DNA of 64,000 nucleotides, taken from assembly GCF_045037415.1 (NCBI RefSeq), contig NZ_CP173438.1; one strand, given 5' to 3'. This DNA comes from Escherichia coli. GTDB taxonomy: Bacteria > Pseudomonadota > Gammaproteobacteria > Enterobacterales > Enterobacteriaceae. This document shows, piece after piece, positions 3,553 to 15,035 of this stretch (within the stretch, counting starts at the first letter, position 1; every line of letters starts with the position of its first letter). Below the pieces are notes generated by a model that did not search any database, was not told the origin of the DNA, and was given only the letters and a program-made list of their open reading frames with translations. The position numbers were made by a program, and so were the translations under genes.

Positions 3553-4429
3553 CGTATACAGCGAAAAGCGCCCGCCGGGCACGCTGCGTACCGCCTGGCG
3601 CAAATTTTATAGTGACGCCTCTGCGATGGTCGGCCTGTACGGCTGCGCGGGGCTGGCTGTACTGTGTATTTTTGGCGGCTGGTTTGCGCCTTACGGCATC
3701 GACCAGCAATTTCTCGGTTATCAATTATTGCCGCCGTCATGGTCGCGCTATGGCGAAGTTTCTTTCTTCCTGGGGACTGACGACCTCGGACGCGATGTTT
3801 TAAGCCGTTTACTGAGCGGAGCTGCGCCAACCGTAGGTGGCGCATTTGTGGTGACGCTTGCCGCGACGATCTGTGGCCTGGTACTGGGCACCTTCGCCGG
3901 GGCGACCCACGGCCTACGCTCAGCGGTGCTTAACCATATTCTGGATACCTTACTGGCGATCCCTTCGCTGCTGCTGGCAATTATCGTTGTAGCGTTTGCC
4001 GGACCGAGTTTGTCTCACGCCATGTTTGCTGTCTGGCTGGCGCTGCTGCCACGTATGGTACGTTCGATTTACAGCATGGTGCATGACGAACTGGAAAAAG
4101 AGTACGTTATCGCCGCCCGTCTGGATGGCGCATCAACGCTGAATATTCTCTGGTTTGCTGTGATGCCCAACATCACCGCCGGGCTGGTCACCGAGATCAC
4201 CCGCGCACTGTCGATGGCAATTCTCGATATCGCCGCGCTGGGCTTTCTCGATCTCGGCGCACAACTGCCCTCGCCTGAATGGGGAGCGATGCTCGGTGAT
4301 GCGCTGGAACTGATTTATGTCGCCCCGTGGACTGTCATGCTGCCTGGTGCGGCGATTATGATTAGCGTGCTGTTGGTTAACCTCCTTGGCGACGGTGTCC
4401 GTCGTGCAATTATTGCGGGGGTGGAATAA
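3539..4429 (+). CDS. sapC: ABC transporter permease SapC
   Basis: 296-aa hydrophobic ORF overlapping the sapB 3' end. Confidence 0.9.
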
Positions 4430-8825: not shown

Positions 8826-11800
8826 TTACTCCTGACGGCGCGGTTTACCGGCAAACAAACGTTTCACCAGTACAAAAAACAGAGGAACGAAGAAAATGGC
8901 CAGTAATGTAGCGGTCAGCGTGCCGCCAATAATGCCCGTACCAATGGCGATGCGGCTGTTCGCCCCTGCGCCGGTTGCTATCGCCAGCGGCATTACCCCC
9001 GCAATAAACGCCAGCGAGGTCATGATGATTGGGCGTAAACGAGTCTGCGCCGCGCGTAATGCCGCACGACTCAAGGAATAGCCCTCTGCAACCGCCGCTT
9101 CAGCAAATTCCACAATCAGAATGGCGTTTTTCGACGACAAGCCGATAGTAGTTAATAGCGCTACCTGGAAGTAAACGTCGTTGTTTAAATCACGCATCCA
9201 GGCCGCCAGCGCCGCGCCAAGAAGCCCCAGAGGGATCACCAGAATGACCGAGAACGGGACTGACCAGCTTTCGTACAGTGCTGCAAGGCAGAGGAAAACC
9301 ACCAGAATAGAAACTGCATACAGACTTAATGCCTGACCGCTGGCCAGTTTCTCCTGCAATGACAAACCACTCCAGGCCCAGGTTGTTCCCGCAGGAAGAC
9401 TGTTTGCCAGTTCCTCCATTTTTGTCATTGCATCGCCGGAACTAAAGCCAGTCGCGTTTTCGCCCTGAATTTCATAGGCTGCCGAGCCGTTGTAGCGCAC
9501 CAGTCTTTCCGGTCCATACAGCCAGCGGGTGGTCGCAAAAGCAGAGAATGGTGTCATGGCGTTATCGCTGCCGCGCACAAACCATTTACCTAAGTCTGAC
9601 GGCGCGGAACGAAATTCGCTGTCGCCCTGAATGTAGACTTTTTTCACACGACCACGGTCAATAAAGTCATTCACATAAGTACCGCCCCACGCACTGGACA
9701 GGGTGTCGGTGACATCATTCAAACTCAACCCTAATGACACCGCTTTATTACTATCAATATCTACCTGCAATTGCGGCATTTGTGGCAAATCATTGGCGCG
9801 TACAGAATGTAACTCCGGACTTTGATTCGCTTTTTCTATCAACTGATTACGCATTTGCAGCAGTGTTTCACGATCGGTTCCACCGTTAGCTAACAATTCA
9901 AACGTAAAACCATTGCTTTGGCCCAGCCCATCAACGGCTGGCGGCGTCATCGCAAATACCGTGGCATCACGAATTGTGCCCAGCTCTTTGGTTGCCCGTA
10001 GGGCGATAGCCTGGGCGGTGTTTTCTGCCCCTTTACGTTGAGACCAGTTTTTCAACGAAACAAACGCCATCCCGGTGTTCTGTCCGCTACCGCTAAAACT
10101 GAAACCATCAACGGTAAAGATGACATCGGTATTTGCTTTCTCGTTAATCAGGAACCAGTCAACAATCTGGCGATTCACTTCTGCTGTACGGGCAGCGGTC
10201 GCCCCGGCCGGCAGCGTGTACTGCACCATGATTTCGCCCTGGTCTTCAGTGGGTAAGAAACTGCCCGGCAGTTTCCACATCATCAGGGCCATTCCACCAC
10301 CCAGCACGACATAAAGCCCCATCGTTCGGGCTGCACGGCGCAGGACATAAATTACGCCTCGCTGATATTTATCTTCAGTACGGCGGTAAAAGCGGTTAAA
10401 TGCGCCGAAAAAGCCTTTTTTATGTGGTGGAACATGCTGGAGGACGGAACCGCACAGGGCGGGAGTCAAGGTCAATGCCACCACCACGGAAAGCAGCATT
10501 GCGGAGATGATGGTGATGGAGAACTGACGATAAATTACCCCCGTAGATCCCCCAAAGAAGGCCATCGGCAGGAATACGGCTGACAACACCAGCGCAATGG
10601 CAACCAGTGCGCCAGAAATCTCGCCCATTGATTTTTCCGTGGCTTCACGCGCGGGCAACCCTTCGTCACGCATAATGCGTTCGACGTTCTCTACCACCAC
10701 AATGGCATCGTCCACCAGCAAGCCGATCGCCAGCACCATTGCAAACAACGTCAGGGTATTAATCGAATAGCCAAACAACGCAAGAACGCCGAATGTGCCC
10801 AGCAAAACGACGGGGACAGCTAACGCCGGAATCAGTGTGGCACGCAGGTTTTGCAGGAATAAATACATCACGCAAACCACCAATACGATGGCTTCAAACA
10901 GCGTCTGAATTACGTCCTCTACGGAGATTTTAATAAATTCAGTGCTGTCTTTCGGGTATGCGATGTCGTATCCCTGCGGCATGTTCCGCTGGAATTCGGC
11001 AATCTTATCCTTGACCAGCGTCGCCGTATTCAGCGCATTCGCACCGGGCGAAAGCATTACAGCAACCCCGGCAGACGGGTGACCGTTAAGTTTGCCGATA
11101 GCGGTATAATCTTCACTGCCCATCTCAACGCGAGCCACATCTTTTATACGAACAACTGCGCCGTCTGACTGGCTTTTCACGATAATATTTTTGAACTGAT
11201 CCACCGTCTGCAAGCGAGACTGCGCACGTACCGTTGCGGTCAGTTGCTGAGTATCCGGTGAAGGCAATGCCCCTATTTTCCCGGCAGTAACCTGCACGTT
11301 TTGCGCTTCAATAGCACTTTGCACGTCTGAAGGCATCAGCGAGTAAGACGCCAGTTTGGCCGGGTCAAGCCAGATGCGCATAGCGTATTCCGCGCCAAAG
11401 ACTTGCAGACTCCCCACACCTTCAACACGCGCCAGCGGGTCCTGAACGTTACTGACCAGCCAGTCGGCGATATCCGAACTGGAGGCTTTGTCAGTGGTGT
11501 CATACACGGCAGCAATCAGCAAAAAGTTGCTTTGTGATTTCTCCACCGTAACACCCGTTTGCTGCACTTCGCTGGGTAGGCGCGACTCCGCCTGCTGAAT
11601 TTTATTCTGCACCTGAACCTGTGCAGTATCTGGATCGGTACCTTGTTCAAAGGTCACATTAATACTGACCGAACCATCAGAGCTACTGGTTGAGCTGAAA
11701 TAGAGTAAATTATCAAGCCCAGTGAGTTGTTGCTCGATAACCTGAGTCACGCTGTTCTCCAGCGTTTCGGCAGAAGCACCAGTATAAGTGGCTGAAATTT

Positions 11801-11933
11801 TAATGGTCGGCGGTGCAACGTCAGGATATTGCGCGACGGGCAATGTGCGAATAGCCAGAATCCCTGCCAACATAATCAAAATGGCGATAACCCAGGCAAA
11901 GACCGGGCGGCGAACAAAAAAGCGCGAAAACAT
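8826..11933 (-). CDS. RND multidrug efflux permease (AcrB/MexB HAE1 family), 1035 aa
   Basis: N-terminal region aligns closely by eye with E. coli AcrB (RPVFAWVIAI..MLAG..LPVAQYP..; LIPxxAVPVVLLGTF; GLLVDDAIVVVENVER). Confidence 0.9.
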   Translation of the reverse strand: MFSRFFVRRPVFAWVIAILIMLAGILAIRTLPVAQYPDVAPPTIKISATYTGASAETLENSVTQVIEQQLTGLDNLLYFSSTSSSDGSVSINVTFEQGTDPDTAQVQVQNKIQQAESRLPSEVQQTGVTVEKSQSNFLLIAAVYDTTDKASSSDIADWLVSNVQDPLARVEGVGSLQVFGAEYAMRIWLDPAKLASYSLMPSDVQSAIEAQNVQVTAGKIGALPSPDTQQLTATVRAQSRLQTVDQFKNIIVKSQSDGAVVRIKDVARVEMGSEDYTAIGKLNGHPSAGVAVMLSPGANALNTATLVKDKIAEFQRNMPQGYDIAYPKDSTEFIKISVEDVIQTLFEAIVLVVCVMYLFLQNLRATLIPALAVPVVLLGTFGVLALFGYSINTLTLFAMVLAIGLLVDDAIVVVENVERIMRDEGLPAREATEKSMGEISGALVAIALVLSAVFLPMAFFGGSTGVIYRQFSITIISAMLLSVVVALTLTPALCGSVLQHVPPHKKGFFGAFNRFYRRTEDKYQRGVIYVLRRAARTMGLYVVLGGGMALMMWKLPGSFLPTEDQGEIMVQYTLPAGATAARTAEVNRQIVDWFLINEKANTDVIFTVDGFSFSGSGQNTGMAFVSLKNWSQRKGAENTAQAIALRATKELGTIRDATVFAMTPPAVDGLGQSNGFTFELLANGGTDRETLLQMRNQLIEKANQSPELHSVRANDLPQMPQLQVDIDSNKAVSLGLSLNDVTDTLSSAWGGTYVNDFIDRGRVKKVYIQGDSEFRSAPSDLGKWFVRGSDNAMTPFSAFATTRWLYGPERLVRYNGSAAYEIQGENATGFSSGDAMTKMEELANSLPAGTTWAWSGLSLQEKLASGQALSLYAVSILVVFLCLAALYESWSVPFSVILVIPLGLLGAALAAWMRDLNNDVYFQVALLTTIGLSSKNAILIVEFAEAAVAEGYSLSRAALRAAQTRLRPIIMTSLAFIAGVMPLAIATGAGANSRIAIGTGIIGGTLTATLLAIFFVPLFFVLVKRLFAGKPRRQE

Positions 11934-13053
11934 CAGGCGTTGCCTCCATTAGCCTGAACTTCAACAGCCTTGACGGTCTGCCCTGAAGTGACTTTGGCAG
12001 AACCTTCAACAATCAGTCGGTCGCCGTTGTGCAGGCCGTTCAGCACCAGCCATTTATCACCATACGTTTCTCCCGTTTCGAGCGTTCGCTGCTCTACTTT
12101 ATTGTCTTTATTCACCACCAGCGCAGTTGCATTGCCTTTAGCATCGCGCGTAACGCCCTGTTGAGGCGCGAGAATAGCGTTTTCCATCACGCCTTCATCG
12201 ACACGAGCGCGAACAAACATTCCCGGTAATAACTGCTGTTGTGGATTGGGGAAAATTGCCCGTAATATCACCGAACCGGTAGACTCATCCACCGCGACTT
12301 CGGTGAGTTCCAGACGCCCTTTTTCGCTGTAGGTTGTGCCATCTTCCAGAATAAGTGAGACGCTCATGGTGTCACTGTTGGTCGCCAGTGACTGTTTACG
12401 CAGACGTAATAAATCGACACTGGAGCGAGTGAGGTCGACATACATTGTATCCAGACCACGAATAGTCGTTAACGCTGTATCCTGCGACGCGGTCACCAGT
12501 GCGCCAGGGGTTACCGACGAAATACCAATACGCCCCGAAATCGGTGCGGTTACCGTGGTCCAGTCAAGATTAATGCGCGCAGTTTCCAGTGCGGCTTTTT
12601 TCGCCTCTACACTGGCTTTATCTTGTGCACAGGTAGACTGAGCATCATCAGCATCCTGTTGTGAAACACCATTCTCTTTCACCAGTCGGGCATAACGCTG
12701 CGCTTTCTGGCAATCGGCTTTTACCAGTGCCTGTGCTTGTTGTAATGCTGCCCGGGCTTCATTCCATGCAGCCTGATAACTGGCCGCATCAATCTGGTAG
12801 AGAGGCTGTCCAGCCTTGACCAGATCACCTTCCTTAAATAAGCGTTTCTGGATAATTCCCCCAACCTGCGGACGTACTTCAGCACTGAGCGCAGCACTGG
12901 TGCGTCCGGTTAATTCACTGACTACCGAAACCGGTTGAGATTTGAGCGTAACAACGCCGACTTCTGTTTCTGACGGGGATGAATTGTTACTTTGCGTATT
13001 ATCACAACCCGATAAGAGCAGCATTGCCACTACAGATGTTGCTATATACTTCA
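11933..13053 (-). CDS. RND efflux periplasmic adaptor (membrane fusion protein, AcrA/MexA family) lipoprotein
   Basis: Start chosen at MKYIATS with GGAG Shine-Dalgarno upstream (ORF track extends to 13087); lipobox LLLSGC; stop overlaps the RND start. Confidence 0.8.
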
Positions 13054-13080
13054 TTATTTTCTCCAGGGTGAGAAATACCC

Positions 13081-13153
13081 TCCTCATTGAAATTAATGAG
13101 GATATGTCAGGGATATTCAGTTATAACGAACCCGCATCGCGAAATGAATTTCG
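13081..13153. promoter_or_regulatory. Candidate operator region upstream of the efflux operon: two perfect 7-bp-arm palindromes (CCTCATT-N6-AATGAGG at 13081-13100; GCGAAAT-N2-ATTTCGC at 13138-13153)
   Basis: Palindromes directly seen between the TetR gene and the adaptor gene start; a TetR-type operator is inferred. Confidence 0.3.
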
Positions 13154-13163
13154 CAATGAAATA

Positions 13164-13181
13164 AGGGGGATTAATATCCCC
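13164..13181 (-). terminator. Hairpin GGGGGAT-taat-ATCCCCC downstream of the TetR gene
   Basis: Perfect inverted repeat followed by a T-rich stretch on the minus strand. Confidence 0.3.
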
Positions 13182-13202
13182 CGCTATTGGTTAATTCTGT
13201 TC

Positions 13203-13769
13203 TTATTTATTTATCAACATACTAACAATATCCTGATATATTTCCTGCAGATGTTGTGGATCGCTTTTTTGCGGTGTTAAACGACGATAAACCGTACCTT
13301 CCATCATGGTAGCAAACACTTCAACGCAGCAACGAATGTGCTCGTCGCTAAGATGGGGATGCATTCTTTTCATATGTGCACAACCGTTAGCGAACATTCT
13401 GGCGTCAGCTTCTTCAAGCATTGCCATAACCCGCGGGTTGCGTGTGGCTTCTGCAGCCACTTCCAGCATCAGCGCGTCGTCGTCCTCATTTAAGGATTTA
13501 CGCAAGGCAAGGACTTCCGGGAAGTGATCGGTACGCGCGTCAATGTCCATTTGGGCAATACGAAAGTCGATGATACGGCGAACCATCTCTTCAATAATGG
13601 CGTCTTTGTTGGCGAAGTAACGATATATCTGACCCACGCTAAGCTGAGCTTCGCTGGCAATTTGCGACATACTGGCGGCATGAAATCCGCAGCGACGAAA
13701 ACACCGACGGGCGGCGTTAATGATTTCATCCTGACGCTGTTTGTGGCGTATCTCCAGCTTGCTGGTCAT
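13203..13769 (-). CDS. TetR/AcrR family transcriptional regulator, probable regulator of the adjacent efflux operon
   Basis: N-terminal helix-turn-helix signature (ASMSQIASEAQLSVGQIYRYFANKDAI); start placed at MTSKLE with AGGAG upstream (ORF track extends to 13868). Confidence 0.75.
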   Translation of the reverse strand: MTSKLEIRHKQRQDEIINAARRCFRRCGFHAASMSQIASEAQLSVGQIYRYFANKDAIIEEMVRRIIDFRIAQMDIDARTDHFPEVLALRKSLNEDDDALMLEVAAEATRNPRVMAMLEEADARMFANGCAHMKRMHPHLSDEHIRCCVEVFATMMEGTVYRRLTPQKSDPQHLQEIYQDIVSMLINK

Positions 13770-14246
13770 TTCTGTCTCCTGGCCTATCACTTGGTGAGAA
13801 TGATCATTCTCATTTTTGCTAATTATACGTTTCTCCAAAGTAATGGAAAGTATTTTTATCTTATTCATGATGCATATTCTGATAATGAAGAGATTGTGGA
13901 GATTCTGTGAAGATAGTTGACAATATTAAGTTGGAGTCAATTCATCAGAAAGACAGCGACTTGTTGTCGCCAGTTCTGTTTTCATCATTAAACTTATAGG
14001 AGCTAATACGAATAGTTTCAAAGTCAGATTCTATAAGATATTTCCCCAACCTCCCCCTTGCAGGCGTCAGGAGTAGATAACGCAAAATGCTCTGTACCGC
14101 AGCTTCTCTCCGCTACAGAAAGCGCAACTATAGCCACCCACAGCCAGGTTGATTATAATAACCGTTTATCAGTTCGTACTGTTTACTAAAACGACGAATC
14201 GCCTGATTTTCAGGCACAACAAGCATCAACAATAAGGATTAAAGCT

Positions 14247-15035
14247 ATGGGTTTTCTTTCCGGTAAGCGCATTCTGGTAACCGGTGTTGCCAGCAAACTG
14301 TCCATCGCCTACGGTATCGCTCAGGCGATGCACCGCGAAGGAGCTGAACTGGCATTCACCTACCAGAACGACAAACTGAAAGGCCGCGTAGAAGAATTTG
14401 CCGCTCAATTGGGTTCTGACATCGTTCTGCAGTGCGATGTTGCCGAAGATACCAGCATCGACACCATGTTCGCTGAACTGGGGAAAGTTTGGCCGAAATT
14501 TGACGGTTTCGTACACTCTATTGGTTTTGCACCTGGCGATCAGCTGGATGGTGACTATGTTAACGCCGTTACTCGTGAAGGCTTCAAAATTGCCCACGAC
14601 ATCAGCTCCTACAGCTTCGTTGCAATGGCAAAAGCTTGCCGCTCCATGCTGAATCCGGGTTCTGCCCTGCTGACCCTTTCCTACCTTGGCGCTGAGCGCG
14701 CTATCCCGAATTACAACGTTATGGGTCTGGCAAAAGCGTCTCTGGAAGCGAACGTGCGCTATATGGCGAACGCGATGGGTCCGGAAGGTGTGCGTGTTAA
14801 CGCCATCTCTGCTGGTCCGATCCGTACTCTGGCGGCTTCCGGTATCAAAGACTTCCGCAAAATGCTGGCTCATTGCGAAGCCGTTACCCCGATTCGCCGT
14901 ACCGTTACTATTGAAGATGTGGGTAACTCCGCGGCATTCCTGTGCTCCGATCTCTCTGCCGGTATCTCCGGTGAAGTGGTCCACGTTGACGGCGGTTTCA
15001 GCATCGCTGCAATGAACGAACTCGAACTGAAATAA
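14247..15035 (+). CDS. fabI: Enoyl-ACP reductase (NADH) FabI
   Basis: 262-aa ORF recognised as E. coli FabI ([28 protein letters not shown]...). Confidence 0.95.

Follow-up and report, generated by a model that had tools for sequence, protein, structure and literature searches.

The eefRABCD operon and the spacer between eefR and eefA

In a 64,000-nucleotide stretch of Escherichia coli DNA (contig NZ_CP173438.1, in the following called the window) we analyzed the spacer between eefR, the gene of a TetR-family repressor, and eefA, the first of the efflux pump genes behind it, together with three palindromes that lie in this spacer. The genes are located on the minus strand between fabI and sapF in the order TetR gene, adaptor, resistance-nodulation-division (RND) permease, outer-membrane factor and pump of the major facilitator superfamily (MFS), the last two (eefC and eefD) being read from the RefSeq annotation of an identical genome, and fabI, yciW and rnb are found on the far side of eefR. 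We identify the locus as eefRABCD, an accessory operon of E. coli. It was recognised recently as a seventh RND efflux operon in those phylogroups of the species that are behind most extra-intestinal infections. It has been located between fabI and sapF in phylogroups B2, D, E, F and G by Pugh et al. (Microb Genom 2026; PMC12817139), and its functional characterisation has been described by Shen et al. (Virulence 2025; PMC12482432). We found the segment in 2040 of 5426 complete E. coli genomes.

The repressor gene eefR (13203-13769, minus strand; stop codon 13205-13203) encodes 188 aa from its annotated and conserved start at 13769, and the mechanical open reading frame (ORF) reaches 13868. It is followed by eefA (11933-13054, minus strand; ATG at 13054-13052), which encodes the periplasmic adaptor with the lipoprotein signal MKYIATSVVAMLLLSGC, then by the RND permease gene eefB (8826-11933, minus strand) and further on by eefC and eefD. 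Many database entries contain an EefA of 384 aa that starts at an in-frame ATG at 13087. This ATG lies in the 3' arm of the hairpin named C below, is not preceded by a Shine-Dalgarno sequence and lacks conservation beyond Escherichia; judged from the compared sequences, the conserved start of EefA is 13054, giving a protein of 373 aa.

An exact search and a reading of the window confirmed three perfect inverted repeats that had been pointed out in an earlier note on this DNA, each of them lying one base further to the right than given there. Palindrome 1 (CCTCATT-N6-AATGAGG, 13082-13101) has arms that extend to 8 bp at 13081-13102, palindrome 2 (GCGAAAT-N2-ATTTCGC, 13139-13154) extends to imperfect arms of 11 bp (CATcGCGAAAT/ATTTCGCaATG, 13135-13158) and palindrome 3 (GGGGGAT-N4-ATCCCCC) is located at 13165-13182. 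All three are found inside the 148-nt spacer (13055-13202) between the stop codon of eefR and the start codon of eefA. They could be chance or neutral features of a spacer that is A+T-rich (39% G+C), as short inverted repeats are common and the whole window contains 61 perfect ones with arms of 7 bp, roughly one per kb. However, when perfect palindromes with a loop of 0-6 and arms of 7 bp or more were counted in 5000 first-order Markov shuffles of the spacer, a shuffled spacer contained 0.16 of them on average and three or more were found with a probability of 0.0074.

In the order of the mRNA, which corresponds to the minus strand, palindromes 3, 2 and 1 become hairpins A, B and C. The stop codon of eefR is followed by 20 nt of variable sequence and then by hairpin A (GGGGGAU-AUUA-AUCCCCC, 13165-13182), which was picked up by a terminator scan and has a 7-bp stem with five G-C pairs, a 4-nt loop and a folding free energy (dG) of -11.6 kcal/mol. 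Behind it the minus strand continues with TTATTTCATT, and its U-rich tail UUAUUUCAUU (13155-13164) has U at seven of ten positions, the last 4 nt also being the base of hairpin B. Hairpin A therefore shows the anatomy of an intrinsic terminator, namely a short-looped stem of at least 5 bp that is rich in G+C, a U-tract on the 3' side and a site just past the stop codon. The scan flagged it as terminator-like in E. coli as well as in Lelliottia, Kluyvera and Enterobacter, where a hairpin with a U-rich tail is found at the same place, and the tails contain five to eight U in ten positions in most genera. The suggestion of the earlier note that palindrome 3 might terminate the regulator transcript gains support from these results.

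Hairpin B (CAUUGCGAAA-UUCA-UUUCGCGAUG, 13135-13158) has 10 bp including one U-G wobble. An interval of 32 nt (13103-13134), which the predicted fold leaves mostly unpaired and whose 3' part is rich in A and U (UUAUAACUGAAUAU), separates it from hairpin C (UCCUCAUU-AAUUUC-AAUGAGGA, 13081-13102), which ends 26 nt before the start codon of eefA. The A/U-rich patch is present in all genera that we aligned, and the interval is a candidate entry site for the endonuclease RNase E. The Shine-Dalgarno sequence of eefA (GGAG, 13061-13064, minus strand) is part of a conserved block, UUCACCCUGGA(A/G)AAA, which has the form ...UUCACCCUGGAGAAA in the window. Compared with shuffled sequences, the fold of the E. 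coli spacer has a z of -3.4 and was equalled by none of 200 shuffles, and hairpins A, B and C are present in both the minimum free energy and the centroid structure. The E. coli fold contains an extra hairpin (UUUCUC-ACCCUG-GAGAAA, 13057-13074, minus strand) that could cover the Shine-Dalgarno sequence of eefA. We rejected it as part of the conserved element, as it is allele-specific: ST131-type genomes are identical, and other Escherichia have UUGUUC at its 5' arm.

The operator of EefR and its relation to the spacer

According to the earlier note palindromes 1 and 2 would be operators of the TetR-type regulator, now EefR, overlapping a separate promoter of the pump genes, and the eefR transcript would end at palindrome 3. 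Several features speak for such an arrangement: the regulator gene is located upstream of the pump genes in the same orientation, like in systems where the repressor binds between the two, perfect palindromes are improbable by chance, and a copy of the EefR half-sites with one mismatch overlaps palindrome 1 (13069-13086). However, the proposal is essentially refuted by a published promoter and operator upstream of eefR, by a transcript that bridges eefR and eefA and by a spacer fragment that did not compete for the repressor (PMC12482432).

A promoter-gfp fusion revealed that a promoter within ~316 bp upstream of eefR is repressed by EefR (PMC12482432). In the window we found a promoter-like sequence, PeefR (TTTCCA-16 nt-TATAAT, 13822-13849, minus strand), with 10 of 12 matches, which lies inside the repressed reporter fragment as well as inside the 129-bp probe P1 (13770-13898) of the electrophoretic mobility shift assay (EMSA) in that paper. 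Other genera have conserved this -35/-10 pair upstream of eefR, and PeefR is likely the promoter of the whole eefRABCD operon. Directly downstream of the -10 the window carries the EefR operator as a perfect 18-bp palindrome (TGAGAATGATCATTCTCA, 13795-13812). Purified EefR shifts the 129-bp probe with the allele TGAGAACGATCATTCTCA of this palindrome, and the shift is lost when the palindrome is deleted or carries point changes, including one single-base change (PMC12482432). The allele of the window, which is perfectly palindromic with T instead of C at position 7, differs from the one studied in strain ATCC 35218; in the latter and in most other genera position 7 is C or G in one or both of the operator half-sites.

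Reverse transcription PCR (RT-PCR) on cDNA crosses every junction of the operon including that of eefR and eefA, which argues against a regulator that is transcribed apart from the pump, and in an eefR mutant the mRNA is increased 83-fold for eefA, 28-fold for eefB, 43-fold for eefC and 27-fold for eefD in qRT-PCR (PMC12482432). As the published primers map exactly onto the window, we could also locate the 'nonspecific' competitor of the EMSA (eefA-gel-F/eefA-gel-R) at 13055-13200, which means that all three palindromes are part of it. Unlike unlabelled P1, this fragment failed to compete for EefR (PMC12482432), and specific binding of EefR to the spacer was therefore not found in this competition at 1x and 2x.

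We then compared the operator between species using a one-genome-per-species scan with the EefR protein, which gave 48 loci, in 43 of which the upstream region was examined. The motif TGAGAA-N6-TTCTCA is present exactly in 30 of the 43 loci and with at most one mismatch in 38 of them. It is located 37-47 nt before the eefR start in nearly all loci (at -88 in L030), and a conserved TATAAT-like -10 precedes it in most loci with eefA downstream. Judging from these sites, the DNA specificity of EefR is constant across Escherichia, Enterobacter, Lelliottia, Kluyvera, Leclercia, Phytobacter and Kosakonia. The spacer palindromes, in contrast, vary from genus to genus and even among Enterobacter species, their half-sites not being conserved.

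None of the three palindromes matches TGAGAA-N6-TTCTCA. The only near-match to the EefR motif in the spacer is the site mentioned above (TGAGGAGGGTATTTCTCA on the sense strand, TGAGGA-GGGTAT-TTCTCA, 13069-13086), which overlaps the 3' arm of hairpin C. Its single mismatch, TGAGAA to TGAGGA, is the same substitution as in primer MT-1, which abolished the EefR shift (PMC12482432). We rejected this site as an operator, as it has the substitution that abolishes binding, is part of the fragment that did not compete and is not conserved even in other Escherichia, two of which (L002, L003) have TTGTTCA. A consensus scan also found no sigma-70-like site on the coding strand of the spacer (13055-13202) nor in the spacers of Lelliottia and Kluyvera, leaving the separate pump promoter of the earlier note without a match.

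Four loci from Erwinia and Pantoea (L025, L028, L030 and L036) carry eefR homologues without eefA downstream and have operator-like sites 70-90 nt upstream. L025, L030 and L036 show a wider-spaced version, TGAGAATGAACGTTC(A/G)..., which in L036 is a full 22-bp palindrome (TGAGAATGAACGTTCATTCTCA), and L028 has the related site CGAGAATGAACGTTCGTTCTCA. This suggests, as far as such sites can tell, that the regulator family is used with other target genes in these loci. The intergenic region of fabI and eefR contains a further terminator-like hairpin (TGGCGAC-AACAA-GTCGCTG, then TCTTTCTGAT; 13954-13972, minus strand), which is located ~100 nt upstream of the eefR promoter and has no obvious upstream gene on the minus strand.

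Conservation and covariation of hairpins A, B and C

In 27 of the loci eefA follows eefR, and in 25 of these 27 the spacer is 129-155 nt long. The sequences of the palindromes are not conserved in these spacers, yet an inverted repeat is present at each of the three positions, and the hairpins recur there in at least ten other genera. The arms of hairpin B, for example, are GCGAAAU/AUUUCGC in E. coli, UCUGGC/GCCAGA, UCCGGC/GCCGGA or UCUGAC/GUCAGA in Enterobacter species, UCCGCG/CGCGGA in Lelliottia and UCCGC/GCGGA in Phytobacter, and in most genera they are flanked by CAUU...GAUG, which pairs with a U-G wobble. Local folding gave a hairpin at all three positions in 27 of 27 spacers with a mean dG of -8.4 (A), -11.4 (B) and -11.1 kcal/mol (C). 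Their positions are nearly fixed, as A begins ~20-23 nt past the stop codon and the distance from the end of the hairpin to the ATG is 67-83 nt for B and 18-28 nt for C.

Using a sequence-only MAFFT alignment of 26 spacers, RNAalifold recovered hairpin B only, with nine pairs, six of them compensatory and almost none broken. Hairpins A and C were missed by the plain alignment because they were out of register, and we solved this with a covariance model and local folding of each sequence. For the three helices in the sequence-only alignment 82.5% of the cells pair, compared to 41-52% after sliding the 3' partner by 1-3 columns. Moreover, 15 of the 25 pairs change on both sides, and the covariation score of 0.336 lies above the 0.08-0.13 of the slid controls and was reached by none of 500 shuffles. 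Realignment with a covariance model built from the sequence-only alignment raised the values to 86.2% of cells pairing, 18 of 25 pairs changing on both sides and a score of 0.357, but as this model-fitted alignment leans to structure the unfitted figures are the conservative ones. In hairpin C two-sided changes were seen in seven of nine pairs in the model-fitted and in four of nine in the sequence-only alignment. With the same positions used in at least ten genera, compensatory changes, slid controls that score far lower and no shuffle reaching the observed covariation, a chance or neutral origin of the palindromes is hardly credible.

The pairs of hairpin B comprise 219 Watson-Crick, 31 G-U and 6 A-C cells, and the hairpin is more stable on the sense than on the antisense strand in 25 of 27 sequences; this asymmetry is weaker in hairpin C (14 vs 5 cells; 17 vs 8 sequences). 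Changes in the stems within Escherichia keep the pairing as well, as seen for a C to U change opposite G in hairpin B of the E. coli strains H32 and H33, an A to G change giving a G-U pair in L002 and L004 and a double change of G-C to A-U in E. albertii. Pairing that is kept while the sequence is free, together with G-U wobbles on the sense strand, is the signature of an RNA structure and not of a sequence-specific protein site, and this covariation indicates that the palindromes are selected as sense-strand RNA helices. The published EefR operator, TGAGAAYGATCRTTCTCA (13795-13812), behaves differently and keeps its sequence in 38 of the 43 loci, whereas the spacer repeats keep only their complementarity, with G-U favored over A-C. 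Combined with co-transcription, the non-competing fragment and a spacer without a promoter-like site, we regard it as very improbable that palindromes 1 and 2 are EefR operators over a separate eefA promoter.

The same signature bears on an internal promoter of eefABCD that is independent of EefR, in which case the palindromes would be DNA sites of another regulator or of a nucleoid protein, for example H-NS, a silencer of eefABC in Klebsiella aerogenes. An A+T-rich spacer and a weak promoter-like match just before hairpin A in one Enterobacter species would fit to this, and K. aerogenes has been reported to carry eefABC without eefR, so that a promoter should be located upstream of eefA there (PMC12817139). 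Furthermore, plasmid-borne eefAB, eefABC or eefABCD needed the native sequence upstream of eefA for a phenotype, and native promoter elements have been considered as the reason (PMC12482432). However, a protein site should keep its sequence, and here the pairing is kept instead. The spacers of E. coli, Lelliottia and Kluyvera have no sigma-70-like site, and the match in Enterobacter lacks conservation. Read-through from PeefR accounts for the 83-fold derepression of eefA, as the only known site of EefR lies upstream of eefR, and the plasmid result is equally explained by a need for the native leader and ribosome-binding site. Two protein searches for eefA loci without eefR, as in the K. aerogenes/K. 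pneumoniae type, gave only eefR-linked relatives. Taken together, such an internal promoter appears quite unlikely to us.

Genera that were not part of the covariance model, found via EefA homologues (Citrobacter amalonaticus, Pseudocitrobacter and Raoultella), match it with E-values of 2e-32 to 2e-18. A scan of 12800-14400 against Rfam 15 gave no match at an E-value up to 1. We also considered a dispersed intergenic repeat of the repetitive extragenic palindromic (REP), bacterial interspersed mosaic element (BIME) or enterobacterial repetitive intergenic consensus (ERIC) type, which should be present in multiple copies per genome, and rejected it, as the model matches the 64-kb window once and the spacer is found once per genome (median 1 place).

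Two natural insertions were found in the spacers of Escherichia. In E. coli razor3 (L050, NZ_CP176051.1; locus 1740-2508) an insertion sequence, IS1, with the 9-bp target duplication CGATGCGGG is located just 3' of hairpin B, at the place corresponding to 13131-13139 of the window. It splits eefABCD from eefR and hairpins A and B and could uncouple the pump from control by EefR. In Escherichia sp. MOD1-EC7003 (L004) 124 nt are inserted between the eefR stop codon and hairpin A (~3581-3704), leaving the three hairpins intact. This insert belongs to a dispersed intergenic repeat that E. coli genomes contain in unannotated DNA with a median of 8 copies, and its core resembles the ERIC/IRU consensus.

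Interpretation and comparison with known systems

From these results we consider it likely that the three palindromes are not protein operators but the stem-loops A, B and C of the intercistronic eefRABCD mRNA, with A being a leaky terminator and B and C influencing the fate of the mRNA. As shown by the published experiments, transcription starts at the EefR-repressed promoter (~13822-13849) with its single operator (13795-13812). Hairpin A and its U-tract would then act as a leaky intrinsic terminator or attenuator, as its anatomy and conservation suggest, so that basal transcription would give mainly eefR message and a fraction of the polymerases would read through into eefABCD. Under repression the repressor message would thereby be made with little pump message, which would fit to the reported cryptic pump. 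For hairpins B and C a role in the processing or stability of the mRNA or in the translation of eefA is probable: B (with A) might shield the 3' end of an eefR segment, and C might be a protective or organising 5' structure for the initiation region of eefA after cleavage in the A/U-rich interval. Such a structured leader may also explain why the native sequence upstream of eefA is needed on plasmids.

Several observations weigh against this model. Phytobacter has a hairpin at the position of A without a U-tract (tail CGUCAUCAUU) and several Enterobacter species have only a weak hairpin A (dG -1.8 to -5.8), and termination may thus not be its conserved role. Hairpin A is also fully Watson-Crick and has no strand preference, and the published RT-PCR shows read-through past its position (PMC12482432), from which it follows that A is not a strong terminator. 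The spacer of Klebsiella sp. BIGb0407 (L032, 3562-3603) is only 42 nt long and contains none of the three hairpins; by its sequence it is a natural deletion variant, and at least one background can do without the element. Regarding the protein side, the published competitor was used at 1x and 2x only, which rules out high-affinity binding of EefR but not weak binding. The consensus scan might miss a weak or non-sigma-70 internal promoter, and the authors of PMC12482432 suggested 'putative native promoter elements' in the 5' region of eefA.

A structured leader that is strongly conserved and keeps fixed distances to the eefR stop and the eefA start could also be a conditional attenuator or riboregulator, where read-through at A or access to the eefA ribosome-binding site responds to a signal, for example translation stress at the end of eefR, an RNA-binding protein, a small RNA or temperature, and which would add a second layer of control independent of EefR. 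The pairing selected in B and C, both without a terminator tail, and the UUUCUC/GAGAAA hairpin covering the Shine-Dalgarno sequence in the allele of the window would fit to such a mechanism, and ribosome-mediated attenuation of efflux genes is known in other bacteria. On the other hand, neither length nor sequence is constant in the loops of B and C, making a specific ligand or protein site unlikely, the hairpin covering the Shine-Dalgarno sequence is allele-specific and no Rfam match was obtained. Antiterminator pairing between the arms of A and B was sought by eye, which gave no convincing case and no conserved alternative pairing, and GGA motifs of the CsrA type at the Shine-Dalgarno sequence are not conserved in Kluyvera. 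We also looked at a leader peptide, as an AUG in the 3' arm of hairpin B opens ORFs of 6-8 codons in E. coli and Enterobacter. We rejected it, as this AUG has no preceding Shine-Dalgarno sequence and covaries as part of a base pair, with ACG or GCG in its place in four of the five Kluyvera spacers, and the variation in Enterobacter falls on first codon positions. A signal-responsive leader is thus an unlikely explanation. If true, the 'cryptic' pump of pathogenic E. coli lineages would be inducible after transcription initiation by a route that does not involve EefR.

Two groups disagree on the contribution of eef to drug resistance, and one of them blames an undefined cis-acting sequence upstream of eefA. 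If the palindromes are RNA stem-loops as we propose, the spacer would be a structured RNA leader under purifying selection instead of a repressor site, and directly behind the repressor gene it would probably carry a leaky terminator. This offers a testable explanation of the silent pump in cells that make the repressor and of the different behaviour of constructs without the native leader, and it would correct an easy mistake, namely taking palindromes beside a TetR gene for operators. In practice the gain is modest and consists of a defined element to mutate and of some caution for construct design and for the annotation of the eefA start codon.

The locus described in PMC12482432 and PMC12817139 is the same as ours with respect to gene order and the fabI-sapF site. 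In these papers the spacer appears only as the nonspecific EMSA competitor and as an undefined 'eefA upstream sequence', and stem-loops, their conservation or a terminator-like hairpin are not described. Thus, the operon and its operator were already published, and the three spacer hairpins have no description in either paper or in Rfam.

In the CmeR-cmeABC system of Campylobacter and in MepR-mepA of S. aureus the binding site of the repressor is located between the regulator gene and the pump genes. The eef locus resembles them in having the regulator immediately upstream of the pump genes in the same orientation and inverted repeats in the spacer, but it differs in that the only demonstrated site of EefR is located upstream of its own gene, while the spacer does not compete and its repeats behave as RNA structure. 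A parallel to hairpin A might be the rplL-rpoB intercistronic attenuator of E. coli, a partial intrinsic terminator inside an operon. As in that case, a G+C-rich hairpin with a U-tract is located between co-transcribed cistrons and would lower distal compared to proximal expression; in eef, however, the proximal gene is the repressor of the operon itself, two more conserved hairpins follow, and termination at A is predicted from its anatomy. Finally, intercistronic stem-loops that set differential mRNA stability after endonucleolytic cleavage are known from the REP hairpins of malE-malF, from papB-papA and from puf of Rhodobacter. Unlike REP, the eef element is not dispersed, with a single covariance-model match in the 64-kb window. 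Similar to these examples, the eef hairpins flank an A/U-rich single-stranded segment and their stems are conserved and their loops are not. The kind of element, a partial intrinsic terminator together with intercistronic stem-loops in an operon, is therefore a familiar one and of modest interest as such.

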